From the NCBI GenBank assembly GCA_017958565.1, contig JAGDCJ010000039.1:1-50168 (forward strand): a DNA stretch of 50,168 nt, given 5' to 3'. A program made the translations under genes and the position numbers. Source of the DNA: Opitutales bacterium (GTDB lineage Bacteria; Verrucomicrobiota; Verrucomicrobiia; Opitutales; UBA9783). Of the stretch, positions 22,483 to 35,354 are shown in pieces. The notes beneath the pieces are model-generated. The model worked only from the letters and a program-made list of their open reading frames with translations, had not been told where the DNA came from and made no database searches. Within the stretch, counting starts at the first letter, position 1. Each line of letters starts with the position of its first letter.

Positions 22483-23279
22483 TACACCGCAACCGGAGCG
22501 GTAATCGTAGGCCACGGATCATAGTTTTCCAACCGAACCGATGCAAACGTAAAATGATTGATATTGGTAATCGTTGGATCCAGCGTTACCGTCGGTAACG
22601 GTTTCGGCTTGCGGGACAATTGCGTCCTCACTTGCTCGCAATGATTTTTGTAAATATGAGCATCCCCTATCGTATGAATCAACGTTCCTGGCTTCAAATG
22701 GCATACCTGTGCGATCATATACGTCAGCAAAGCGTAGGAAGCGATATTAAACGGAACCCCTAAAAACAAATCACCGCTTCGTTGATAAAGCTGACAACTG
22801 AGCGTTCCGTTTGTATGCACGTAAAATTGGAAAAGAGAATGGCAGGGAGGTAGCGCCATCCGATCCAATTCTCCCACGTTCCAAGCAGAAACGATGTGCC
22901 GACGGCCAAAAGGATTTTTTTGAATTCCTTCGATCACAGTTTGGATCTGGTCTATGAGGCGACCATCAGCTCCTTTCCAATGTCGCCATTGCGCTCCGTA
23001 CACCGGCCCCAAATCCCCCTTTTCATCGGCCCACTCATTCCAAATACGCACACCATGTTCTTGCAAAAAACGAACATTGGTATCACCGGACAAAAACCAC
23101 AGCAACTCGTACACAATCGATTTAAAATGGACTTTTTTGGTCGTCAGCAGCGGAAATTGCTGAGAAAGATCGATGCGCATTTGTGTCCCAAACACGCTGA
23201 TCGTTCCGACACCCGTGCGATCCAAACGCTCTTCTCCGTGTTCCAAAACGTACCTCAATACATCCAAATAAACTTGCAT
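22482..23279 (-). CDS. thyA: thymidylate synthase (ThyA type)
   Basis: 265 aa with an ATG start. Contains RTGVGT, the LPPCH active-site Cys, [21 protein letters not shown] and DAHIY. Confidence 0.93.
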
Positions 23280-23352
23280 CGTTTTCTTTTGATTATAAAA
23301 AAATTCTCTTCTGAAAATAGCAAAAAACAGGAAGGAAGCTACAAAAAATTTT

Positions 23353-23826
23353 TTACAATCCCAGCCCTCGACCGGCGTTCTGGCTCAATTTTTCCTGCAA
23401 CGCAGCTTGAAATTGTACTAAATCTTCTTGCGAGGGCCGATACCCTGGTTGGGTAGGTTGCAACGATAAGCGACCGAATCGATCCAATCCCCAAGTGGCG
23501 GTTTTCCCATCCGAAAACGTCACGCTCCCGTTCGTAACCATTCCCGGGCGCATAACGGGATCGACCGATACGCGCACCAAGCCCTCTTCCACCACTTCGC
23601 CTTCCATGGGATCCAAGGAAGATGCTGTTGTTTTTGGCTCCGACTTTACCGGTTCTGGCGCAAATTGCAAATCCCAATCATCCATCAAAAATCGCGTTTC
23701 TAAGTACGTCAGGTGGATTCGAAACGTTTCGTTGATTTTTGTTTGTAGCTCTCCGATGGAATGCAGCTTCGGCATCCAATTACGAATTTGCTCAATTTGT
23801 TCAGAAGAAAAAGCAGACGTAGTCAT
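23353..23826 (-). CDS. hypothetical protein (157 aa) immediately downstream of dnaA
   Basis: Clean ORF with an ATG start, co-oriented with dnaA and thyA. I recognise no motif in it. Confidence 0.55.
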
Positions 23827-23967
23827 TACATTCTTTACATGTTCTTAGAATAAAAATGAACAAAAATTTTTCAAGTTTTTCTGCAAAAACAAAAAGATCT
23901 TATCGGAAAAATTTTTAAAAACCTCTTTACGAAGGGAAAATTTCCGACCCTCGTTTGCAAGCCAACG

Positions 23968-25314
23968 CTAATTTTTTCGCACCAACTTTTGCTGTAAAAA
24001 TTGCAACGTACGTTGCGTGGTTGGTTCTTGCTGCAAAGTATTTTCCACGGTTTTGCAGGCATGAATCACGGTCCCATGATCACGTCCACCGAAGGCAATC
24101 CCAATTTCTTCCAATGAAGATTGTGTCAAAATGCGACAAAGGTACATCCCCACTTGCCGCGGAAAAGCAATGGCGTTAGGCCTTTTCTTCCCCAACAAAT
24201 CCGTCATGGTAATGTGATAAAAATCACAAATCTGCTTTTGAATATCCTCAATCGTTACTTGCGAGGCCAATTCTTCCTGAAAAATATCGTACAAAAGCTC
24301 TTCTACTTTATGAAGCGATAAATCGGACACATGCATCCATTTTTGATAACCGGCAATGCGGTTTAAGGCACCTTCCATTCGGCGTACATTGCGCGTTACC
24401 CGTTGCGCTAAAAATTCAATTACCGACGGGCTTAACGTCAATTGCATGGACTGTGCTTTTCGGGTCAAAATCGCCACACGAGTCTCAAAATCTGGCGCTT
24501 GAATATCACCAACAAACCCCCACTGGAAACGAGAAACCAGCCGACTTTCTAGTTTCGCAATTTCTCCGGCTGGACGGTCGCTACACAGCACGATTTGCTT
24601 TTGTGATTCAAACAATTCGTTAAACGTGTGAAAAAATTCTTCCTGGATTCGCTCTTTGCTGGCCAAAAAATGAATGTCGTCGATTAAAAGCACATCGGCT
24701 TTTCTGTATTTGCGACGAAAGGAAGGAAGGTGATTTTCTTGAAGCGCACTGATAAATTCGTTCGTAAATCGTTCCGTGGTGAGGTACATGACCTTCGCAG
24801 ATGCCATATGCTGATGGATAAAATTACCCATCGCTCGCATTAAGTGCGTTTTCCCCAAACCGGTATTCCCATAAATAAAAAGCGGATTGTACGCTTTTCC
24901 GGGAGCATTGGCAACGGCAACGGAAGCAGCGTAAGCCAATTGATTGTTCGCCCCTACCACAAAATTTTCGAAGGTATAAGAAGCCGACAACCCGTTGCAT
25001 ACACGGGAAGGAACGGTTTCAGAGGGAATAAAAGGAACCGAAGGAAGTTCAGGCGCAACCGCAGATTCTTGCATAGGTAACGCTTTGAACGTTAAATGAA
25101 CGGGATGCCCAACGAACTGTGCCACCTTTTGCTCCAACAAATCCTGATAATTATCTTGGATCCACATCGCTGCAAAATCATTGTTCGCAACCAATGTCCA
25201 TTGGCTATTCTCGCACTCTCCTTCCGCTTGCAAGGGCTGAAACCAGGTACGGTATAAATCTTCCGACAAGCGATTTTTTAACTCCTGCTTTAACTGCTCC
25301 AACAAATTCCTCAT
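23968..25314 (-). CDS. dnaA: chromosomal replication initiator DnaA
   Basis: 448 aa. Contains Walker A GNTGLGKTHL, Walker B LLIDDIHF, sensor/box VII motifs and a C-terminal DNA-binding domain (IAFPRQVGMYLCR...GGRDHGTVIHA). Confidence 0.93.
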   Translation of the reverse strand: MRNLLEQLKQELKNRLSEDLYRTWFQPLQAEGECENSQWTLVANNDFAAMWIQDNYQDLLEQKVAQFVGHPVHLTFKALPMQESAVAPELPSVPFIPSETVPSRVCNGLSASYTFENFVVGANNQLAYAASVAVANAPGKAYNPLFIYGNTGLGKTHLMRAMGNFIHQHMASAKVMYLTTERFTNEFISALQENHLPSFRRKYRKADVLLIDDIHFLASKERIQEEFFHTFNELFESQKQIVLCSDRPAGEIAKLESRLVSRFQWGFVGDIQAPDFETRVAILTRKAQSMQLTLSPSVIEFLAQRVTRNVRRMEGALNRIAGYQKWMHVSDLSLHKVEELLYDIFQEELASQVTIEDIQKQICDFYHITMTDLLGKKRPNAIAFPRQVGMYLCRILTQSSLEEIGIAFGGRDHGTVIHACKTVENTLQQEPTTQRTLQFLQQKLVRKN

Positions 25315-25609
25315 GCAACTTTTTAAGACTTATTCACACATTTTTCGCTCAAATGCTCGCAAAAAACAACCCTTTTGCTTGGAAGCCTCTTTTGATCCCG
25401 ATTTTTTCTTCGCAAATGGAACTTTTCATAGACTAAATCAGGTTTAACAAGCATTTTCTTCCCAAAAATTTTTATCCAATAGGAGGGTCTTTACGCGTTT
25501 CTTTTTCAAGAAAATTGATTTTTCATGCTCCGACAAGGAAAACTTATTTACAAATTGTTCACAAGTCAAATAATCGAGGATAAAAGCTCGTAAAAAAGGA
25601 CAAATTTTT
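25315..25609. promoter_or_regulatory. dnaA upstream spacer with degenerate DnaA boxes; candidate oriC and/or autoregulated dnaA promoter
   Basis: Box-like 9-mers are TTATTCACA (25330-25338, 1 mismatch to TTATCCACA), TTATCCAAT (25472-25480), TTATTTACA (25544-25552) and TTGTTCACA (25555-25563). AT-rich tracts are present. Predominant gene orientation switches from minus (left) to plus (right) here. Confidence 0.4.
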
Positions 25610-26176
25610 TTGAAAAACCATTCTTCCCCTCGTAAAAGAGAAAAGTTTTCACAAACCGAATTGTTGGATCTTTCGTATGATCGATCCTTTTTGCAACAAT
25701 CCGCCGTTCATGTCGCACGTCAACTGATTGGATTTCGCTTGTGTCGGTATTGGGAAGGGAAGGTTTTCATGAAGGTAATTACAGAAACCGAAGCCTATAT
25801 GGGAGAAGAAGATGGTGCTTCTCATGCTCGTTTTGGTCGGACCAATCGCAATGCACCCATGTATGGGCCTCCTGGAATATGGTATGTGTATGTATGTTAC
25901 GGAATACATGCCATGTTAAACCTGGTCACCGGGCGTGAAAACGAACCAGCAGCAGTTTTACTGCGCTCTGTACAAAACGTTTCGGGCCCCGGTCGTCTGA
26001 CCCAATGGTTTCATGTTACTCGTTCTCTAAACGGACAACCTTGCGAACCTTCCTCAGGGCTATGGTTATTACCACCCACCGAACGCTTTTCGGTACATAC
26101 CGCACCGCGAATCGGAATCAATTACGCAGGGAAAGAATGGGCCCAAAAACCGTGGCGCTTTATCGCAGAAATATAA
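25610..26176 (+). CDS. DNA-3-methyladenine glycosylase (Mpg/AAG family)
   Basis: ARQLIGFRL, ITETEAY, DGASHA, GIWYVYVCYGIHAMLN and GPGRL are typical of the AAG family. The start is a TTG at 25610, and there is no in-frame ATG upstream of the conserved core. Confidence 0.82.
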   Translation: MKNHSSPRKREKFSQTELLDLSYDRSFLQQSAVHVARQLIGFRLCRYWEGKVFMKVITETEAYMGEEDGASHARFGRTNRNAPMYGPPGIWYVYVCYGIHAMLNLVTGRENEPAAVLLRSVQNVSGPGRLTQWFHVTRSLNGQPCEPSSGLWLLPPTERFSVHTAPRIGINYAGKEWAQKPWRFIAEI

Positions 26177-26247
26177 ATCGGACCCAATTTCCATCTTTGC
26201 TTACCTTTCTTCTTGTAACCAAAAGCAAAAAAATCCACGATAAAAGA

Positions 26248-26991
26248 ATGCGACGAACCGGTTGGGCTTTCTTCTTAGGTGGCCTTCTTTTTTTGATTGG
26301 ATTTTTTTTAGGGAAAGGTCCAAGCAAAAAAGAAACAACCTGCCTGGAAACCGAAGACCCTTTTTTTCAAAAAGCACAGCAATGTTTGCGAGAAAACCGT
26401 GCAGAAGAAGCGTTTTTGTTCTTAAATCGCTTCATCGATGAACGGCAAATCCATTGCCCGGAAACGCATTTCCAACTAGGGCAATTGTCCGTCAAGCGCG
26501 ATCCGATCCTGTCGATTTACCATTTCCAACAATACTTATTGCAAGCTCCCAACGGGGTTCGCTCGAAATTGGTCCTGCAATTGATCGAAACCGCTAAAAA
26601 AGAATTTTCCCGATCGTTACCGCTCAGCAATCGCACCCTAGAAACGCCAGAATTTTTACAATTAACCGAATCCTTTCAACGAATGCGAGAAGAAAACGCG
26701 CAGTTAAAAAAACAACTGGCGCAAGCTCGTTTTTCGCAAACACCGGCGCATGAACGATTCGGTGAAAACGTTACCCCGGTCGCGCTAGAAGAAATGCAGC
26801 AAGATCGATGGTACGTCGTACAACATGAAGATTCTCTTTCCAAGATCAGCTCCAAAATGTACGGAACCGCGGTGCAATGGCATCGGATTTATGAAGCAAA
26901 CCGCGCAATTTTACCATCAGCCAACAGCTTAAAAATTGGGATGAAATTACGCATTCCGGCCTGGACACCTAAAGCCAAGCAAAAACCATGA
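26248..26991 (+). CDS. membrane-anchored protein with helical/coiled-coil region and C-terminal LysM domain
   Basis: ATG 26248 gives MRRTGWAFFLGGLLFLIGFF (TM anchor). The C-terminus YVVQHEDSLSKISSKMYG...IGMKLRIP is a LysM domain. The stop overlaps the ruvC start (ATGA). The upstream part of ORF 26005-26991 overlaps mpg. Confidence 0.7.
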   Translation: MRRTGWAFFLGGLLFLIGFFLGKGPSKKETTCLETEDPFFQKAQQCLRENRAEEAFLFLNRFIDERQIHCPETHFQLGQLSVKRDPILSIYHFQQYLLQAPNGVRSKLVLQLIETAKKEFSRSLPLSNRTLETPEFLQLTESFQRMREENAQLKKQLAQARFSQTPAHERFGENVTPVALEEMQQDRWYVVQHEDSLSKISSKMYGTAVQWHRIYEANRAILPSANSLKIGMKLRIPAWTPKAKQKP

Positions 26992-27569
26992 CCGATCATC
27001 GTCGCGTCTTATGGACGAAGCTGCTGAAACATAAAAAATCAACCGCGTTTTCGGTACAAGCCCATCCTTTTCGAGGAATCGTTTTAGGGGTGGATCCAAG
27101 TTTGCGCGGAACCGGGTTCTTTCTCCTAAAAGTTTTGGATGCGCATTCGATGGAACGGCTCGATTCGCTTACGCTAACCTTATCACCCAAAGAATCCTTC
27201 GTTGCGTGCCTAGGAAAGATTTTTTCTACCACCGAGCAGTGGTTAGAAAAAGTTCCCGTTCAAGCGGTTGCAATTGAACGAACCGTTTATGTGCAAAATT
27301 CTCGGACGGCGCATATTTTAGGCTCTGCCCGCGGGGCATGTTTAGCAGCCGTTGCCCTTCGATCGCTGCCAGTGATGGAATTTTCACCCGCGCGCATTAA
27401 AAAGGCAGCAACGGGAAACGGCCAAGCGATCAAGGAACAAGTGGCGCACATGGTTAAACAAATCTTGCACCTGCCTCAACCTTTACCACCGGACGAATCC
27501 GACGCTGCTGCGGCCGCTCTTTGCTACGTCTTCTCATTAAAAAGCTTGAAAGGTCCCACAGTTTCTTGA
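26988..27569 (+). CDS. ruvC: crossover junction endodeoxyribonuclease RuvC
   Basis: Contains IVLGVDPSLRGTGF (catalytic Asp), AIERTVY and PPDESDAAAAAL. There is a ~28-aa N-terminal extension relative to typical RuvC. Confidence 0.86.
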   Translation: MTDHRRVLWTKLLKHKKSTAFSVQAHPFRGIVLGVDPSLRGTGFFLLKVLDAHSMERLDSLTLTLSPKESFVACLGKIFSTTEQWLEKVPVQAVAIERTVYVQNSRTAHILGSARGACLAAVALRSLPVMEFSPARIKKAATGNGQAIKEQVAHMVKQILHLPQPLPPDESDAAAAALCYVFSLKSLKGPTVS

Positions 27570-27585
27570 TGCAATCAAAAACACA

Positions 27586-27663
27586 CGGGATGTAGCTCAG
27601 CTTGGCTAGAGCACTACGTTCGGGACGTAGGTGTCGCTGGTTCGAATCCAGTCATCCCGACCA
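27586..27663 (+). tRNA. tRNA-Pro (anticodon CGG), CCA encoded
   Basis: Hand-folded cloverleaf: acceptor cgggatg/catcccg (C1-G72), D stem gctc/gagc, anticodon stem ctacg/cgtag with loop ttCGGga, T arm gctgg-ttcgaat-ccagt, then A-CCA. Confidence 0.9.
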
Positions 27664-27717
27664 GATAGGTGGCTTTTGGCGTAAAGGGTCCCCAACAATC
27701 GGTTTATTCGTTCATTT

Positions 27718-28293
27718 ATGGCTTATTATTTAAAAAAATTTACAATTCGAAATTTTCGATCCATCAGCGACCCTGTTACATTACAATTTACCAAGGGTGA
27801 ATTAACCATTTTATGTGGCCCCAACAATAATGGAAAAACAAATTGCTTAAGAGCGATGGACTTGTTTTTCCGTATGGACCCGAAACAGTTTCAAGCGCAG
27901 AAGGATATGCCGTATCACATCACGCATGGATCAAGAGGCGGCAAAAGTCAAACAACCTTCACAGGTACTTTTGAGGACGATGAGGGAAAAGAATATATCA
28001 TAAAACAGGTATACAAAGGTAAACCAGCTACCCTTACAATAATCTTAAACAAAAGCGAGAAGAAGGAGGATCAGGAAAAAGCTAGAAACATTATAAACCA
28101 GTTTCAGTTTATTTTCGTAGAAGCTAATAATGTAAATCTACCTGAACTCATTAGGAAAATGTTTACAGAAAAAATCCTTGCACTAGGTATGAAAAAGAAC
28201 AGGGGACAAACAAAGGCACGGGAAAGACTTCAGAACTTCCAAGAGGATTGCCAGAAGGTTGTAAACAAAATCAATAAAAATTTAACCGAGTAG
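27718..28293 (+). CDS. OLD-family nuclease, N-terminal fragment (ABC-ATPase Walker A half plus helical insert); ends at an in-frame TAG
   Basis: MAYYLKKFTIRNFRSI... with Walker A GPNNNGKT (27817-27840). A Lys/Glu-rich helical tail follows. It is in the same frame as the next ORF. Confidence 0.75.
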   Translation: MAYYLKKFTIRNFRSISDPVTLQFTKGELTILCGPNNNGKTNCLRAMDLFFRMDPKQFQAQKDMPYHITHGSRGGKSQTTFTGTFEDDEGKEYIIKQVYKGKPATLTIILNKSEKKEDQEKARNIINQFQFIFVEANNVNLPELIRKMFTEKILALGMKKNRGQTKARERLQNFQEDCQKVVNKINKNLTE

Positions 28294-28380
28294 TTCCATT
28301 CCTTTTTTAAGGATTCTTCTCTTAAAAAAAAGGTTTCCGGTTGTAAATTCAACATAACATTTCCTCAGTCCTTAATCGAG

Positions 28381-29607
28381 GTGATGGAAAGTTTCATAAA
28401 CATAACATTACAGGATCAAAATGATTTAGACCTAGAATGGAAAGGGAGTGGATATCAACGATTGGCGTTATTTGCCATGATATCTTATTATGCAAAATTA
28501 ATAAAAGACAAGAAGGTAATATGGGGAATAGATGAGCCAGAGGGATCTTTACAATCGAAATTGCAAAAACATACTTTCCAAAACCTGAAGAAACTCGCCC
28601 AAAATCACTGTATAATCATAACAACACATTCAAGCTTTTTTATTGATATACATCATTTAGACACAACTTTTCTCCTGGAAAGCAACCCTGCCCCCAAAAA
28701 GCACAGGAAGAAGGAAAAAGTGTATCGAAATACAACTTTCATTAGCCCAAGTACCGGACCCGAAAAATTGAAATTGATAAAAAACTACATAGGTATCGAC
28801 GCAGTAGATACTTGGGAACTCTTCCCTAACAATATTTTGGTTGAAGGTAAAACCGATCGAAACTACCTCCAAACTTTAGCGGAAGCTTTACAATTACAAT
28901 GCCCTAACATAATTCCAGTTCATGGCGCACAGAATATGCGCATACATCTTCCGTTTTACAACAGCCATAGGGCAGATGACGATCAAGCTAAAGACAATAC
29001 TGAAAGCAGCAAAGAACCAAAACCTAAAATTACGTGTTTGCTCGACCGTGATCAAGAGGGGAGAGACGTATATAAAAAGATAAAGCCACATTCTTATGAA
29101 AATATAGAGGTTAGCACAGAATACGTTTGTGGTGCTGATGATGATAAATTAAAAGATAAATTCCGTAGGACAATTGAAGATCTTGTTTATCCAAAAGTAA
29201 TATTGCACGCAACAAATCAATTTTTAACATTGAAGAAGCTCAACAAAATTCCTGAAGACTGCCTCGAGAAACGCTTAACCGAGGCATACCAGGAAAAAAC
29301 TTTTTTGGAATTTTTAGCGGAACAAGCTCGGCATGCAGATAGCCGCTGTAATCTTAATTTTAATGAAAAAGGTATAAAAAGCGAAATATGCACAGGGGCA
29401 ATACAGTACATAAAAAACCCTCCGGAGGGAATTAAAAAATTGGATGAAAGCCATCCGCAGGTAAGAAAATTTTTACAAAAATTATTTACATTTCGGAAAA
29501 ACTCGGAAGAAGGACCTAAACCGGCACAAACAGGAGGAAGCAATGAACGGAACGATAAAAAATCACCAAAACCTGTAGAGAACAGACAATTGCCTTTTCT
29601 TTCATAA
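28381..29607 (+). CDS. OLD-family nuclease, C-terminal fragment (ABC signature/Walker B/H-loop plus Toprim domain)
   Basis: GSGYQRL (28444-28464), VIWGIDEPE (28516-28542), TTHS (28621-28632), Toprim ILVEGKTD (Glu at 28843-28845) and LLDRDQEG (DxD at 29044-29052). The nominal start is GTG 28381 or ATG 28384, and neither has a well-spaced SD. Confidence 0.75.
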   Translation: MMESFINITLQDQNDLDLEWKGSGYQRLALFAMISYYAKLIKDKKVIWGIDEPEGSLQSKLQKHTFQNLKKLAQNHCIIITTHSSFFIDIHHLDTTFLLESNPAPKKHRKKEKVYRNTTFISPSTGPEKLKLIKNYIGIDAVDTWELFPNNILVEGKTDRNYLQTLAEALQLQCPNIIPVHGAQNMRIHLPFYNSHRADDDQAKDNTESSKEPKPKITCLLDRDQEGRDVYKKIKPHSYENIEVSTEYVCGADDDKLKDKFRRTIEDLVYPKVILHATNQFLTLKKLNKIPEDCLEKRLTEAYQEKTFLEFLAEQARHADSRCNLNFNEKGIKSEICTGAIQYIKNPPEGIKKLDESHPQVRKFLQKLFTFRKNSEEGPKPAQTGGSNERNDKKSPKPVENRQLPFLS

Positions 29608-29703
29608 CTTGCAGGCTTTTGTATGCGTATTATGTTTTTGAAACAGCACAGAAGCATTCCTTCTTTGCAACCGAAAGAAGTCCCCTAAATCCACTGCTAT
29701 GCC

Positions 29704-29793
29704 TGGCGGAGAGGGGGGGATTCGAACCCCCGATACGCTTTCACGTATGCAGCATTTCCAATGCTGTGCATTCGGCCGCTCTGCCACCTCTCC
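29704..29793 (-). tRNA. tRNA-Ser (anticodon GGA), long variable arm, CCA encoded
   Basis: The reverse complement reads ggagagg-tg-gcag...cagca-ttGGAaa-tgctg-catacgtgaaagcgtatc-ggggg-ttcgaat-ccccc-cctctcc-g-cca. Confidence 0.9.
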
Positions 29794-29922
29794 GGACATT
29801 CTCAATATGGGAAAAAACAAGACACATCTTCAAGTTTAAAACATGAAGGCGGATCTTTATATCGAAAAGCATCCAAACCCACCGTTGATGACAACCCGTT
29901 TACCAAGAGCAGAAAGTTGCCC

Positions 29923-31137
29923 TTATTTCGAAACCGCAACGGTTCTTTTCAATCCCAACACATATTCCACATCCTTATCGCCGCGTCCGGAAAGATTTAC
30001 AAGGATCTTGCGGAATTTTTTCTCTTTTGCCAAACGTACAGCGTAAGCGACCGCGTGCGCGCTCTCCAATGCCGGGATGATACCTTCCGTTCTTGAAAGT
30101 TCAAAAAATGCATCCAACGCTTCCGCATCCGAAACAGTATCATAATGGACACGCCCGATGGTTTTCAGGTAACAGTGCTTGGGTCCAACGCCGGGGTAAT
30201 CCAATCCGCTGGCGATCGAATACGCATTCGCAACGTTCCCGTGTTCATCCTGCAACACAAGATTTTTGAAACCGTGCAAAATTCCCTCCTTCCCATAGGT
30301 GATACTAGCGGCGTGTGAACCGAGAGAGGTTCCTTTCCCAAGTGGTTCAACACCAAACAACGCCACCGATGGGTCATGCAAGAAACCGTTAAAAATTCCA
30401 AGAGCATTGGAACCGCCACCAACACAAGCAATTACGCATTCTGGCAAACTACCGGTTAATTCCGTAAATTGCGCACGCGCTTCTTTCCCCACAATCGACT
30501 GAAAATATTCTACCATCATCGGGAACGGATGCGGTCCGACCACGGAACCAATGGCATATAACACATCCGGATAAGTTTTGCTGTAAACCTCAAAAGCTGC
30601 ATCAACAGCATCCTTCAATGTTTGCGTGCCGCTCGTAACCGAAATTACCTTTGCACCTAACAGTTTCATGCGATCCACGTTCGGCTTTTCCTTGGCAACA
30701 TCCACCGCCCCCATGTAAATATCGCATTCGAGCCCGACGAATGCGGCTGCCGTTGCAAGCGCGACACCGTGTTGTCCGGCACCTGTTTCGGCGATCAATT
30801 TTTTCTTGCCCATTCTCTTCGCTAACAACGCCTCGCCGAGACAATGATTGATTTTATGCGCACCCGTATGATTTAAATCTTCGCGCTTTAGATAAAGATC
30901 TGCTCCATACTTTCGGGAAAGATTTTTGGCGAAATAAACAGGGCTCGGTCGACCAACATAATGCGTATAAAGATCGCTCAATTCGGCATGAAATTTGACA
31001 TCCTTCTTACAGTTCAAAAAGGCCGCCGTGATATTTTCAAATTCCGCCTTCAAACACTCCGGCACAAACGCGCCGCCAAAAGTTCCGTAAAAACCATCTT
31101 TGTCCGGATTGTCCAAAAATTCCACAAAACCATACAA
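29923..31137 (-). CDS. trpB: tryptophan synthase beta chain (no trpA or other trp genes in window)
   Basis: Contains [24 protein letters not shown] (PLP lysine), [14 protein letters not shown] and GLDYPGVGP. The start is a TTG at 31137; a GTG 4 codons downstream is an alternative. Confidence 0.9.
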
Positions 31138-31210
31138 ACATCCAAAGAATTTGCTTGCAAGTCAAAATAAGCCACCTTGTGCGTATCGTACGCCCGAAAC
31201 ACCACTGGAC

Positions 31211-31231
31211 AAAAAACGCCTCGCGACGCTT
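31211..31231 (-). terminator. rho-independent terminator downstream of the pyrophosphatase gene
   Basis: The minus strand reads AGCGTC-GCGA-GGCGTT followed by TTTTT. This is a GC-rich stem (2 G-U pairs) with a GNRA loop, about 80 nt after the stop at 31311. Confidence 0.5.
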
Positions 31232-31310
31232 TCAAGCGACAAACTCTAGAATCTTATCGGATTCTTTGATAGAAAGCCAAACTTTTGTCCGAGCTACTTG
31301 TTGGGATCCT

Positions 31311-33488
31311 CTAAAACTGGAATGCCAACGTTAAACCGGAGCCGACAATCGATGCGATCGTCATCAGTTTCAGCAAAATATTCAAAGAGGGACCGGCCGT
31401 ATCTTTAAACGGATCCCCCACCGTATCGCCAATAACCGCGGCTTTATGCGCTTCCGAACCTTTCCCTCCAAAATGGCCTTCCTCGATATACTTTTTGGCG
31501 TTATCCCAAGCACCACCGGCATTGGCCATAAAAATCGCCAATACAAACCCGCTGGCCAATGTTCCGGCCAACAAGCCGATCACACCCGCTACCCCTAAAC
31601 AAATCCCAACCAAGAAAGGGAACGTAATACATAAAAGAGCCGGCAGTAACATTTCTTTTTGCGCAGATTCCGTAGAAATCCGCACACATCGCGAATAATC
31701 CGGTTTTGCTTCTCCGGTTAAAATTCCCTTAATTTCTCGAAATTGACAGCGGACCTCATCCACCATTTTGGAAGCCGCACGGCCCACGGCATTCATCGAT
31801 AATCCGCAAAAGACAAAAGCCAGCATCGATCCGATGAACATTCCCATCAACACTTTTGGATTCAACAAATGCACTTCAAAAAAGTGCATCAATTCCACCA
31901 AAGACACATCGCTGGTTTTAATCATCTCCCCATTGATTTCCACAAACTCTTTGCCCATCCGCATTAAGCCGCATTTTAATTCTTGCACGTACGACGCAAC
32001 AAGTGCCAATGCCGTTAAGGCTGCAGAACCAATCGCAAAACCTTTTCCTGTAGCCGCCGTCGTATTCCCGATCGCATCCAAGGCATCGGTTCGTTGGCGA
32101 ACCTCTTTCGGCAAACCACTCATTTCTGCATTTCCACCGGCATTATCCGCAATCGGTCCATACGCATCCGTCGCAAGCGTAATTCCCAACGTGGAAAGCA
32201 TTCCGACCGCTGCCAATCCAATACCATACAATCCTTTATTAAAGGCAGTTGCTTGAAATTGCGAAGCAAGGCCAAAGGCGATCGCCATTCCAATAACTAC
32301 TGCAAACACTGGAATCATGGTAGAAGACATCCCGGCTCCTAACCCACCAATCACAACCGGACCAGCACCGCTTTCTGCTTGCTGAGAAATCAATCGTGTC
32401 GGTTTATACTCTGCTGATGTGTAGTATTCACACGCTTTCCCAATGACGATACCGGTAATCAATCCTGCAATCAAAGATCCCCATAAATAAACGCCCAATC
32501 CCAACCATTGCAAAAGGAAATAGGAAAGGATCACCAAGCCGATCGCTGCCACATGAATTCCATGATCGAGCGCTTTTAAAATTGCTTTTCCGGATTCTAC
32601 ACACCCAACCCTTACTTGAAAAATACCGACTAGGGACAAAACAATACCCAATGCCCCGATCAGCGCAGGAGCAAGAACCGCATTCCACTGTAAGTTTGGT
32701 TGATGAAAGAAAGCAATCGCACCCAAAGAAGCAGCTGCAATAATGGAACCGTAATACGATTCATACAGATCGGCCCCCATTCCGGCTACATCCCCAACGT
32801 TATCCCCTACGTTATCGGCAATGGTTGCTGGATTTCTCGGATCATCTTCCGGAATATTCGCCTCTACCTTCCCAACTAAATCGGCTCCTACATCGGCCGC
32901 TTTTGTGAAAATTCCCCCTCCAACACGGGCCAATAAGGCATTTGTGGAGGCTCCGATCCCAAACGTAACCATGGTGGTCGTAATCAACAAAACCCGTTCG
33001 GCTTCCGAAGCACCTACCGCACAATGTTTTAGCACAAAGAACCAAAAAGAGTAATCGAGCAACGCCAAACCGACTACCACCAAACCCATCACCGCACCGC
33101 TCCGAAAGGCAACCGTCAACCCTCTATTCAAAGAAGTTCGCGCCGCTTCAGCGGTTCGTGCAGAAGCAGCTGTTGCCGTTTTCATTCCCAAAAACCCGGC
33201 AAGTCCTGAGAAAAACCCGCTGGTTAAAAAGGCAAACGGAACCCATTCGTTTTGTAACTGAAATCGATAGGCTAAAATTCCCAAAAAAACGGCTAAAATC
33301 AGGAAAAGGAACAACACCACCTTATATTGCTGCTTCAAATACGCCATGGCTCCTTCGCGAACATAACCCGCAATGGAACGCATGGTTTCATTCCCTTCAC
33401 TTTCTTGCTTCATTTGTTTATAAAAGTACGCTGCAAACATCAACGCACTGCATCCGGCAACGGGGACAAACCAAAAGATTTCACTCAT
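31311..33488 (-). CDS. hppA: membrane-bound ion-translocating inorganic pyrophosphatase
   Basis: 725 aa and highly hydrophobic. H+/Na+-PPase motifs are present (GGIFTKAADVGADLVGKVE, DNVGDNVGD, AGGAWDNAKKYIE, GDTVGDPFKDTAGPS). Confidence 0.93.
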   Translation of the reverse strand: MSEIFWFVPVAGCSALMFAAYFYKQMKQESEGNETMRSIAGYVREGAMAYLKQQYKVVLFLFLILAVFLGILAYRFQLQNEWVPFAFLTSGFFSGLAGFLGMKTATAASARTAEAARTSLNRGLTVAFRSGAVMGLVVVGLALLDYSFWFFVLKHCAVGASEAERVLLITTTMVTFGIGASTNALLARVGGGIFTKAADVGADLVGKVEANIPEDDPRNPATIADNVGDNVGDVAGMGADLYESYYGSIIAAASLGAIAFFHQPNLQWNAVLAPALIGALGIVLSLVGIFQVRVGCVESGKAILKALDHGIHVAAIGLVILSYFLLQWLGLGVYLWGSLIAGLITGIVIGKACEYYTSAEYKPTRLISQQAESGAGPVVIGGLGAGMSSTMIPVFAVVIGMAIAFGLASQFQATAFNKGLYGIGLAAVGMLSTLGITLATDAYGPIADNAGGNAEMSGLPKEVRQRTDALDAIGNTTAATGKGFAIGSAALTALALVASYVQELKCGLMRMGKEFVEINGEMIKTSDVSLVELMHFFEVHLLNPKVLMGMFIGSMLAFVFCGLSMNAVGRAASKMVDEVRCQFREIKGILTGEAKPDYSRCVRISTESAQKEMLLPALLCITFPFLVGICLGVAGVIGLLAGTLASGFVLAIFMANAGGAWDNAKKYIEEGHFGGKGSEAHKAAVIGDTVGDPFKDTAGPSLNILLKLMTIASIVGSGLTLAFQF

Positions 33489-33619
33489 GTTATTCCTTTT
33501 TAAAAATTTTTTTTAGTCTACTTTAATATCTTTCCCATCAGCAAGTTTTTTCGCAAACAAGAAAAATTTTCTCGACGTTTATGCGAAAAACGAAGGGCAT
33601 TGGAAACGAGGTTTTTTAC

Positions 33620-33647
33620 TTGATTTCTGCGGACTCAGTTGCATAAT
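33620..33647 (+). promoter_or_regulatory. candidate sigma-70 promoter for the tRNA-Lys/Thr(/Leu)-serS cluster
   Basis: TTGATT (33620-33625), a 16-nt spacer, then CATAAT (33642-33647). The tRNA-Lys 5' end is 14 nt downstream. Confidence 0.35.
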
Positions 33648-33660
33648 AAGCTTTGTTTGT

Positions 33661-33735
33661 GCCCGGCTAGCTCAACGGTAGAGCAACTGACTCTTAATCA
33701 GTGGGTTGGGGGTTCGAAACCCCCGTCGGGTACCA
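33661..33735 (+). tRNA. tRNA-Lys (anticodon CTT), CCA encoded
   Basis: D stem gctc/gagc, anticodon stem actga/tcagt with loop ctCTTaa, T arm ggggg-ttcgaaa-ccccc. The acceptor gcccggc/gtcgggt has two G-U pairs, including 1:72, hence slightly lower confidence. Confidence 0.82.
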
Positions 33736-33736
33736 T

Positions 33737-33811
33737 GCCGGCTTAGCTCAGTGGCAGAGCATCTGTTTTGTAAACAGGGGGTCGTCAGTTCAACCCTGAC
33801 AGCCGGCTCCA
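33737..33811 (+). tRNA. tRNA-Thr (anticodon TGT), CCA encoded
   Basis: Acceptor gccggct/agccggc, anticodon loop ttTGTaa, T arm gtcag-ttcaacc-ctgac. It starts 1 nt after tRNA-Lys. Confidence 0.9.
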
Positions 33812-33930
33812 TGTCGGCTTGCTGATTCCATTTTTCTGCGATTTGTTCCCTAACAGCTCCTGGTTTTGACAACAAAGGAGCTGAGAATAAACTTGCCTGC
33901 TTCTTAATATGAAATAAATTGAAAACAGTC

Positions 33931-34014
33931 GCCCAGGTGGTGGAATGGTAGACACGCATGTTTGAGGTGCATGTGCTGAAAGGCTTACGGGTTCAAGTCC
34001 CGTCTTGGGCACCA
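33931..34014 (+). tRNA. tRNA-Leu (anticodon GAG), long variable arm, CCA encoded
   Basis: Acceptor gcccagg/cttgggc, anticodon stem catgt/gcatg with loop ttGAGgt, variable arm tgctgaaaggctt, T arm acggg-ttcaagt-cccgt. Confidence 0.87.
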
Positions 34015-34034
34015 GAAGTTTAAAAAACGGTCAT

Positions 34035-35354
34035 ATGTTAGACATTCATTATTTTCGCGAACACTTTGAGGAAGTCAAACAACGATTGGCAACCAAACAC
34101 TTTGCTTGCGATTGTGAAGTAGTACGACAGCTGGATCAACAACGTTTAAGCAGTCGTAAAACATTCGAAGCCGCTCGTGCGCAACAGCAAGCAGAAAGCA
34201 AAAAAATGGGCACAGTCGATAAAACTGCTGCAGAACTTCAAACCATTCTTCAAAAGCTCAAAACGTTATCAAAGGAAGCCAAAACATTAGAAATGACACA
34301 TAAAGCAGATGAAAACGCTTTTCAAGAAGCTTGGTTAACCGTGCCAAATCTTCCGGATCCGTCCGTTTCAACTGGGAAAACGTCGCAAGAGAATCAAGAG
34401 CGGAAACAATGGCATCCAGAAAACGAAGATTTTTCCCGAAGTTGTCCGCATTATGAACTACCTGGGTTTGAAAATGGGATCGATTTTAACCGCGGAACCA
34501 AAGTGATGGGCGCCGGATTTCCATTCTACGTCGGACCCGTCGCGCGCCTTGTGCGAGCATTGATTGCGTTTTTTCTCGAAAAGGCACGTGATCATGGTTA
34601 CACGGAACTCTTACCACCCTTATTGGTTAATACGGCCAGCGCAACTGCCACCGGGCAACTTCCAGACAAAGAAGGCCAGATGTACGTCGCACGAAAGACG
34701 GTAATCGATGATAAAAATCAGCCAAGCAAGTTGATCGACGAAGGATATCTCATCCCTACAGCCGAAGTATCGGTCACCAATTTTTTCCGCGATGAAATTC
34801 TTTCGGAAGAAGATTTGCCAAAAAAATACTGCGCATATTCTCCCTGTTTCCGTCGGGAAGCGGGAAGCTGGGGCAAAGATGTTCGTGGCCTCAACCGTCT
34901 GCATCAATTTGATAAGGTGGAATTGGTGCAATGGGTACATCCGGAAGCAGGAAGGGACACCCTACCATCTTTGGTGAAAGAAGTGGAAAATCTTTTACAA
35001 GCATTAGAATTGCCTTACCGTGTGATGGAAATCTGTACCGGCGATCTAGGATTTCCGCATGCCAAACAATACGATTTGGAAGTGTGGGCAGCTGGCCAGC
35101 AACGTTGGTTGGAAGTTTCCAGCTGCAGCTGGTTTACCGATTTTCAAGCCCGGCGCGCCAACATCCGTTTCCGCGAAAAAAATGGCTCGTTACGCTTTGT
35201 CCATACCTTGAACGGTTCCGGCTTAGCCATCCCTCGCGTTCTAGCAGCCATGTTGGAAAACAATCATTGCGGAAATGGCCGCATTCGCATTCCGGCGGTT
35301 TTGGAGTATTGGCTGCCCAAAGAAGAAATCATCGATTTACAAAAAAATGGTTGA
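34035..35354 (+). CDS. serS: seryl-tRNA synthetase
   Basis: ATG 34035 gives MLDIHYFREHFEEVKQRL, the canonical SerS N-terminal coiled-coil arm. Class II motifs are present (LIPTAEV, FRREAGS, HTLNGSGLAIPR). The longer ORF from 34005 would start inside tRNA-Leu. Confidence 0.92.
   Translation: MLDIHYFREHFEEVKQRLATKHFACDCEVVRQLDQQRLSSRKTFEAARAQQQAESKKMGTVDKTAAELQTILQKLKTLSKEAKTLEMTHKADENAFQEAWLTVPNLPDPSVSTGKTSQENQERKQWHPENEDFSRSCPHYELPGFENGIDFNRGTKVMGAGFPFYVGPVARLVRALIAFFLEKARDHGYTELLPPLLVNTASATATGQLPDKEGQMYVARKTVIDDKNQPSKLIDEGYLIPTAEVSVTNFFRDEILSEEDLPKKYCAYSPCFRREAGSWGKDVRGLNRLHQFDKVELVQWVHPEAGRDTLPSLVKEVENLLQALELPYRVMEICTGDLGFPHAKQYDLEVWAAGQQRWLEVSSCSWFTDFQARRANIRFREKNGSLRFVHTLNGSGLAIPRVLAAMLENNHCGNGRIRIPAVLEYWLPKEEIIDLQKNG

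Follow-up and report, generated by a model that had tools for sequence, protein, structure and literature searches.

Members of the OLD family are assigned to classes on the basis of their gene context (PMC10568477). In TsOLD, the Class 1 protein of Thermus scotoductus, a helical insert located between β8 and β9 represents the dimerisation domain (PMC7049728), and P2 Old kills through cleavage of the tRNA anticodon stem after ATP hydrolysis (PMC12445682). Vc OLD of Vibrio cholerae, a stand-alone Class 1 protein with anti-phage activity, is blocked by a direct phage inhibitor, Oad1 (PMC12392090). The present analysis concerns an OLD-family gene, predicted to encode an ABC ATPase and a Toprim nuclease, at positions 27718-29607 on the forward strand of a contig of 50,168 nucleotides (nt) from an Opitutales bacterium (JAGDCJ010000039.1, assembly GCA_017958565.1), the whole of which is referred to here as the window. 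The gene is interrupted by an in-frame amber codon, and this form of the gene probably represents a real, population-level and young loss-of-function allele, which would have arisen in a gene subject to strong diversifying selection for as long as it was functional.

Translation of 27718-29607 yielded a single frame of 629 sense codons with one internal TAG (28291-28293), at codon 192, and a terminal TAA, in agreement with the 629-codon architecture that had been proposed in a first-pass annotation of the window. Two open reading frames (ORFs) lie in this same frame, i.e. 27718-28293 (191 aa) and 28381-29607 (408 aa from GTG 28381 or 407 aa from ATG 28384). The 29 codons between them (28294-28380), extending from the stop to the first possible restart, are without a stop, ATG, GTG or TTG codon, and encode the family-invariant residues F215, P216 and L219. 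Because the continuation past the TAG is stop-free for 437 codons in DNA of 35% GC, and because the translation exhibits end-to-end homology to uninterrupted proteins, this arrangement is not due to chance. All motif coordinates of the first-pass annotation proved correct, with residues that were invariant or nearly so in the two alignments (9 members and 44 homologues, respectively) from which family conservation was read. The gene comprises the following features.

27718-28293, + strand: N-terminal fragment ORF (codons 1-191 and the amber codon), with the ATPase N-lobe, including Walker A, and the beginning of the helical (dimerisation) insert, i.e. its first helices
27817-27840, + strand: Walker A/P-loop GPNNNGKT (G34-T41), read from the sequence; G34, N36, N37, G39, K40 and T41 are invariant in the 9-member alignment
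28138-28395, + strand: helical insert in the ATPase (approximately residues 141-226), located from the AlphaFold2 structure predicted for P0002, an intact orthologue; corresponds to the dimerisation domain of TsOLD
28288-28395, + strand: predicted RNA hairpin (a lead only), from folding, in which the 3′ side of the TAG is paired with the GAGG/GTG/ATG restart region
28291-28293, + strand: in-frame amber, codon 192; CAA (Gln) in orthologues, identical in contigs L001, L090 and L091
28294-28380, + strand: linker of 29 sense codons, from translation and alignment
28381-29607, + strand: C-terminal fragment ORF, with the signature, Walker B, H-loop, Toprim, C-terminal helical region and disordered tail
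28444-28464, + strand: ABC signature-like motif GSGYQRL (G243-L249); K242, S244 and Q247 are invariant, and G243 and G245 nearly so, among 44 homologues
28516-28542, + strand: Walker B VIWGIDEPE (V267-E275); D272, E273 and P274 are invariant
28621-28632, + strand: H-loop TTHS (T302-S305); T303, H304 and S305 are invariant
28843-28845, + strand: Toprim catalytic Glu, E376 of ILVEGKTD; invariant in both family alignments
29044-29052, + strand: Toprim DxD, D443/D445; invariant in both family alignments

Neither fragment constitutes a complete ATPase, as had been claimed, and the Pfam AAA_15 profile is divided between them: the N-terminal fragment matched profile positions 3-188 of 374 (1.6e-15) and the C-terminal fragment positions 287-374 (6.4e-14). 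In the public (NCBI) record, the locus is called as two proteins and not as a pseudogene, the N-terminal part being a separate 191-aa protein and the C-terminal part a 417-aa protein that starts from an ATA codon (MTFPQSL..., 28354-29607). These 191- and 417-aa calls would mislead the counting of defence systems.

Searches with the conceptually repaired protein and its relatives recovered both of the domains expected of an OLD protein. The repaired protein matched Pfam AAA_15 (1.3e-28; 101 bits, cut-off 32), and OLD-like_TOPRIM (PF20469) weakly, at 17.4 bits and below the cut-off of 23.2; several homologues possess precomputed PF20469 matches. Among PADLOC models, AriA-ATPase ranked first (8e-33), followed by Old (1.1e-30) and the GajA models (1e-14 to 5e-17). 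A profile of the 44 homologues identified TsOLD (6P74, 3.5e-20) and GajA (~1e-19) as the best solved relatives in the PDB. Consistent with this, the model of P0002 (mean predicted local distance difference test score of 80) returned 6P74 as its top Foldseek match (E 2.7e-17, 504 columns of 512 residues), in a full-length match that takes in the Toprim domain, followed by GajA and the retron-Eco8 OLD. The model was shown to consist, in this order, of an ATPase N-lobe, the helical insert (~141-226), an ATPase C-lobe, the Toprim domain, a C-terminal helical region and a disordered tail, with helices at 141-160, 163-195, 200-206 and 219-226 within the insert, and it places codon 192 where the long helix (163-195) ends. 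By these matches, the repaired protein is an OLD-family ABC ATPase and Toprim nuclease, with predicted nuclease activity and dimerisation, and the gene has a putative role in defence. The first-pass description of the protein as 'P2-Old-like' holds at the level of profiles and fold; it does not hold in a tblastn search of a phage collection, which did not reach P2 Old and matched two Vibrio PE001 elements (PQ189369.1 and PQ189310.1) at 31-32% identity, annotated as hypothetical. These records represent ~14.5-kb elements of Vibrio cyclitrophicus.

To orthologous genes in sister strains, the interruption is foreign. Two uninterrupted proteins, P0001 (634 aa) and P0002 (630 aa), are each 84% identical to the window protein at the amino acid level, and their contigs (L003 and L004, respectively) share with the window the order glycosylase-LysM-RuvC-OLD(-PALP), by which synteny the two genes are identified as orthologues.

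L003, 2504-4408: orthologue gene encoding P0001
L004, 2596-4488: orthologue gene encoding P0002

Both orthologues carry CAA (Gln), the ancestral codon, at the site of the TAG, a difference of two substitutions, and the preceding codon also differs (AAG versus GAG in the comparison of window and orthologues). The TAG is thus strain-specific and the orthologues are single chains; indeed, nearly all of the 71 homologue matches are single polypeptides of 560-640 aa, and the interruption does not reflect a conserved two-gene arrangement. P0001 lacks one Gly of the signature-like motif (KGS-YQRL compared with KGSGYQRL) and, although otherwise intact, may be functionally impaired too.

A 191-aa product that ends at the TAG and is identical to that of the window was recovered from four contigs in four datasets (ERZ27257298, which corresponds to the window, ERZ28653429, SRR29908351 and SRR32285422). 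Contig L001 exhibits 5 single-nucleotide polymorphisms relative to the window in 21 kb and the same TAG. L090 (SRR29908351) represents a distinct TAG haplotype with 18 differences elsewhere, being identical to the window across 27583-29449 (1.87 kb, which includes tRNA-Pro) and differing in clusters at 27530-27582 and 29450-29607, a pattern that suggests mosaic alleles or recombination at the locus. The 3′ end of L090 (equivalent to window 29450-29635) resembles that of L003; its normal stop is altered, and its ORF is 16 codons longer. Because the TAG occurs in four datasets and in two haplotypes or more, it is not a base-call error, which had been one of four explanations put forward in the first-pass annotation, and an artefact of sequencing or assembly was rejected on the same grounds. 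The TAG is a genuine, strain-specific and established allele.

The decoding of the TAG was likewise examined. An altered genetic code or pyrrolysine insertion would turn the TAG into a sense codon, in keeping with the Gln that orthologues encode at this site, and some recoded phages insert Gln at TAG. In this contig, however, TAG terminates five other long ORFs, including dnaA and the H+-PPase gene, the products of which align with their homologues up to the last residues, and no suppressor tRNA with a CUA anticodon was observed among the five tRNAs that ARAGORN identified in the window. Reassignment or suppression of TAG was on this basis rejected for this contig. As regards an artefact, the interruption is a lesion of single-base type in a metagenomic contig; against this stand its occurrence in four datasets and a distinct haplotype, and the two nucleotide differences, rather than one, that separate it from the orthologues. 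Artefact or recoding, taken together, is considered a very remote explanation.

With the allele established, its consequences may be considered in terms of the family to which the protein belongs. By analogy with that family, the intact protein of ~630 aa would dimerise via the helical insert in its ABC-type ATPase, and ATP binding and hydrolysis would control a two-metal Toprim nuclease damaging phage or host nucleic acid during infection. In this strain, the change of Gln-192 (CAA in sister strains) to TAG, which falls where the long helix of the dimerisation insert ends, would cause translation to yield a 191-aa piece with Walker A only, such that the signature, Walker B, the H-loop and the whole nuclease would not be produced in normal amounts.

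Of the four explanations in the first-pass annotation, recent nonsense inactivation is the best supported. The allele is young, given that TAG haplotypes are identical over 1.87 kb and that the window copy is free of a second lesion and retains every family-invariant residue. Loss of function is the default reading because disruption is common in the family: among 80 family loci in GTDB species representatives, 56 of which align cleanly in one long piece, ~8 are broken by internal stops or frameshifts, the positions of which vary, and P0043 is another broken family copy. Furthermore, the 51 substitutions on the window branch would be expected to include approximately 1.5 that create a stop, and with this substitution load one unpurged nonsense codon is unsurprising. 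The interruption itself would then be a routine event, i.e. the nonsense knockout of a defence gene.

Several observations weigh against a plain loss of function. The TAG allele was the most frequently recovered allele (4/6 datasets), and it has spread such that an identical 1.87 kb is found in two haplotypes with differing flanks; a deleterious knockout is not obviously expected to spread in this manner, although selection can favour losing a defence gene that is costly. In addition, nine clustered substitutions, eight of which stabilise the predicted hairpin, would not be expected for a simple knockout, and the only stop in a homologue from Legionella rowbothamii lies four codons from the equivalent site. 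Scans based on RuvC revealed no further alleles or empty sites in GTDB representatives and JGI metagenomes, and the best GTDB family match is 38% identical.

The gene in which this presumptive knockout arose was shown to evolve unusually fast at the protein level. Among the window, L003 and L004, non-synonymous divergence (dN) of the OLD gene was 0.07-0.10 and synonymous divergence (dS) ~0.02-0.03. The dN/dS ratio (omega), which rests on pairwise estimates from three alleles, ranged from 2.6 to 4.7 with all four estimators (NG86, LWL85, YN00 and maximum likelihood) and in all three pairs; in the same comparison, flanking genes displayed dS values of 0.015-0.12 and omega values of 0.06-0.23. 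Changes at codon positions 1, 2 and 3 were distributed as 80:70:43. Synonymous changes were three-fold depleted on every branch (15 observed compared with 45.5 expected), with none of 3000 simulations of spectrum-matched placement yielding a number as low, and codons with a single hit comprised 6 synonymous and 109 non-synonymous changes (P = 2e-7). All eight indel events were in frame. Since L003 and L004 contain no stops, where ~3 would be expected in each, stops have been purged from these two alleles. Variable residues were observed across all domains (17-37% of sites), avoiding the catalytic motifs, and substitutions were clustered, with pairs within 3 nt at 2-2.6 times expectation.

Pervasive, whole-gene diversifying selection is the simplest explanation of this pattern, presumably as a result of an arms race in which phages encode triggers or inhibitors of the protein. 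Drift of a pseudogene was rejected as a source of omega values above 1 in view of the synonymous depletion, the in-frame indels and the absence of stops in L003 and L004. A diversity-generating retroelement was similarly dismissed: changes from A account for ~36-41%, equal to the A content, and are spread over 1.9 kb, with no reverse transcriptase nearby. Sequencing errors in the Logan contigs are not a plausible source either, as flanks on the same contigs are clean (omega ~0.1). Eukaryotic restriction factors show the signature of dN exceeding dS in arms races with viral antagonists. The three alleles would represent a rare bacterial case, in which a whole defence protein exhibits dN well above dS among near-identical strains, and they mark this clade as a place in which to seek phage antagonists of OLD, in keeping with direct inhibitors such as Oad1.

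Two further explanations from the first-pass annotation, readthrough of the amber codon and a functional two-piece enzyme, are together considered unlikely, and both bear on the sequence directly downstream of the TAG. The segment 28280-28400 was predicted to fold into a hairpin (minimum free energy -25.7 kcal/mol, z -2.7), which pairs the 11 nt following the TAG with 28378-28389, encompassing the GAGG, GTG and ATG, and which contains a 9-bp helix (28307-28315 with 28367-28375) that starts ~14 nt past the stop. Nine window-specific substitutions, ~3 times the branch average, are located in 28288-28388, and eight of these stabilise the fold; the same segment gave -17.1 and -19.1 kcal/mol in the orthologues and -12.3 kcal/mol in the inferred ancestor. 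Nine spectrum-matched random changes reached -25.7 kcal/mol in only 1% of trials (P = 0.010). Compared with all 121-nt windows of the gene, however, the hairpin deviates from the mean by no more than 1.7 sd and is not an outlier.

In the case of leaky readthrough, a small number of ribosomes would decode the UAG, perhaps aided by RNA structure, and so provide a low, tolerable dose of nuclease. The intact downstream frame, including the 29 linker codons with F215, P216 and L219, would fit this proposal, as would the wide distribution of the allele and the position of the 9-bp helix, which has been stabilised by substitutions derived in the window. The intactness of the frame is, however, equally explained by the youth of an allele whose haplotypes are identical over 1.87 kb. 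Moreover, TAG serves as a normal stop in this genome, the window yielded no suppressor tRNA, and the hairpin does not stand out within its own gene. Stimulation of readthrough by RNA structure is not known as an established mechanism in bacteria. We therefore regard readthrough as improbable.

A two-piece enzyme would require the 191-aa fragment to reassemble with a C-terminal fragment initiated at GTG 28381 or ATG 28384, perhaps by termination-coupled melting of the hairpin. The break is situated inside the ABC helical insert, the place at which coiled coils naturally separate the halves of Rad50 and SMC heads; the Rad50 entries 1F2T and 1F2U, which represent separate halves, were among the PDB matches of the family profile, and reconstitution of the Rad50 head from two separate chains has been achieved. 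The hairpin, in which the restart codons are base-paired with the 11 nt that follow the TAG, lends some further support, as does a window-specific A-to-G change at 28381 that creates GAGGTGAT in the restart region. This anti-Shine-Dalgarno-like string matches the extended Shine-Dalgarno consensus (16S 3′ end) over 8 nt, although such a sequence is rarely used by genes here. On the other hand, a restart at 28381 or 28384 would remove residues 192-222, including the invariant F215, P216 and L219, and would have to bridge a gap of 87-90 nt without a start codon, and promoter-like sites were not above chance. The split is also not conserved, with the orthologues and nearly all homologues being single chains. 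The first-pass annotation had further argued from the lack of a well-spaced Shine-Dalgarno sequence before GTG 28381 or ATG 28384. This is literally true, a GAGG ending 2 nt ahead of ATG 28384; as an argument it carries no weight, because Shine-Dalgarno sequences are almost never present at the starts of the 19 called genes in 18384-39607.

A comparable split occurs in L. rowbothamii LLAP6 (L033:5986-7725, 31% identical), where a single in-frame TGA lies four codons from the equivalent site and separates ORFs of 193 and 357 aa with an 84-nt gap, a layout nearly as in the window. This resemblance speaks for a two-piece enzyme, although the positional coincidence has a post hoc chance of ~3-7%, and sense codons occupy the equivalent site in P0042, which is related to the Legionella copy. 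A mutational hotspot for stops was excluded as the cause, given that only 1.1-1.3% of stop-prone paths fall within five codons on either side. P0084, a relative of 197 aa, was also discounted as a third break: downstream of its TAG there is no related sequence, and only 16 nt remain before the contig ends, so that the site is a junction rather than a nonsense point mutation. On balance, a two-piece enzyme appears slightly less probable still than readthrough.

A more speculative proposal, and an improbable one, unites these elements: the gene would be an arms-race hotspot, fixed between two tRNA genes (omega ~3-5), in which the amber allele of one haplotype family is itself the selected state, throttled or split at the dimerisation insert, with the newly evolved hairpin linking the UAG to readthrough or to reinitiation at GAGGTGATG. 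If so, the Legionella break four codons away would constitute a second, independent instance of a selected split or throttled state. The position of the break, the derived hairpin and the Legionella case raise the question of whether an OLD ATPase can tolerate, or even exploit, the separation of its halves at the insert. For the window allele, loss of function remains the preferred reading.

The OLD gene is a stand-alone chromosomal gene located in a low-GC gene island between two tRNA genes, where GC falls to ~35% across the gene, compared with ~46-52% in its surroundings.

27586-27663, + strand: tRNA-Pro(CGG), left boundary of the low-GC gene island, identified by ARAGORN and Rfam
29704-29793, - strand: tRNA-Ser(GGA), right boundary, convergent, identified by ARAGORN and Rfam

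Housekeeping genes surround the OLD gene for ~10 kb on each side: neighbours on the left side include dnaA, thyA and genes for DHFR, a DNA glycosylase and a LysM protein, as well as ruvC, while those on the right side include a convergent PALP enzyme gene, the H+-PPase gene and serS (SerRS). The DnaA protein is 50-55% identical to those of metagenome-assembled genomes of Puniceicoccales and Opitutales, and the H+-PPase is 64% identical to homologues of mixed phyla, and thus uninformative. DnaA points to an uncultured, probably Opitutia-like member of the Verrucomicrobiota, to which none of the GTDB representatives is closely related. Among the genes called within ~10 kb on each side, no GajB/UvrD-like helicase, reverse transcriptase or separate Toprim gene (AriB) was found, and an Rfam search of 23000-35000 revealed no non-coding RNA other than tRNAs. 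No integrase or att-like direct repeats of the tRNA ends, and hence no mobile-island signature, were detected at the locus. Promoter-like and terminator-like sites at the locus were at or below chance, and a DnaA-box scan near dnaA yielded nothing above chance.

With no helicase, reverse transcriptase, non-coding RNA or separate Toprim partner nearby, the gene is a Class 1 OLD under the gene-context scheme (PMC10568477). Class 2 (Gabija GajA) was rejected, as the downstream neighbours are the tRNA-Ser gene and the convergent PALP enzyme gene, and Class 3 (retron effector) because the called genes include no reverse transcriptase domain and Rfam identified only tRNAs. Class 4 (PARIS) was rejected because the break at codon 192 lies inside the ATPase, the C-terminal ORF encodes half an ATPase together with the Toprim domain, and the orthologues are single genes. 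The first-pass view that the locus is neither Gabija nor two-gene PARIS is thus borne out, with no helicase or AriB among ~10 kb of neighbours.

Besides the two tRNA genes that bracket the OLD gene, a cluster of tRNA-Lys(CTT), tRNA-Thr(TGT) and tRNA-Leu(GAG) genes is located 4 kb downstream (33661-34014). P2 Old cleaves tRNA-Thr(UGU), and the presence of this cluster is probably a coincidence. In the wider family (L005-L084), no conserved partner gene was identified, but restriction-modification genes are frequent neighbours; an N6/N4 methylase gene is located upstream in 15 loci and a DpnII endonuclease gene upstream in 9. An ORF of ~1080 aa downstream in three family loci was read as HsdR-like from its sequence alone. 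None of these methylase, DpnII endonuclease or HsdR-like genes is present in the window.

Compared with described systems, the locus most closely resembles TsOLD (6P74), which is likewise encoded by a single gene and combines an N-terminal ABC ATPase, carrying a helical dimerisation insert, with a C-terminal Toprim domain. TsOLD is the nearest solved relative and a member of Class 1, yet the two share 18% identity. The window family keeps a signature-like KGSGxQR, whereas the signature is reported to be degenerate in the Class 1 homologues studied together with TsOLD (PMC7049728). Relative to TsOLD, the window family is also ~100 aa longer and has an extra C-terminal helical region, with a disordered tail in this lineage, and the window copy is interrupted by the amber codon. 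P2 Old, the founding Class 1 OLD, exhibits the same ATPase and Toprim layout, and the PADLOC Old model matches the window protein at 1.1e-30; the window gene differs from it in being chromosomal rather than prophage-borne, without an integrase or att repeats. Vc OLD is likened to the window gene by class, as a stand-alone bacterial OLD, and an arms race like that with Oad1 could account for omega values above 1 here.

Among systems with partners, Gabija GajA (Class 2) has the same fold and provides the second-best PDB matches, whereas the window lacks an adjacent GajB/UvrD-like helicase gene and, among PADLOC models, Old and AriA fit the window protein much better than do those of GajA. PARIS AriA/AriB (Class 4) is a naturally split OLD system, with the ATPase and Toprim on two polypeptides encoded by two proper genes. 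In contrast to this division between domains, the window copy is broken within the ATPase itself, with Walker A on one side and the signature on the other, as a result of a nonsense codon that orthologues lack. The heads of Rad50 and SMC proteins, for which sequence and fold matches were found, consist of ABC ATPase halves (Walker A in one, signature and Walker B in the other) that are parted by a helical insertion. These proteins differ in their role in genome maintenance, their long coiled coils and their lack of a Toprim domain, and they offer a precedent only for the association of such halves as separate chains.

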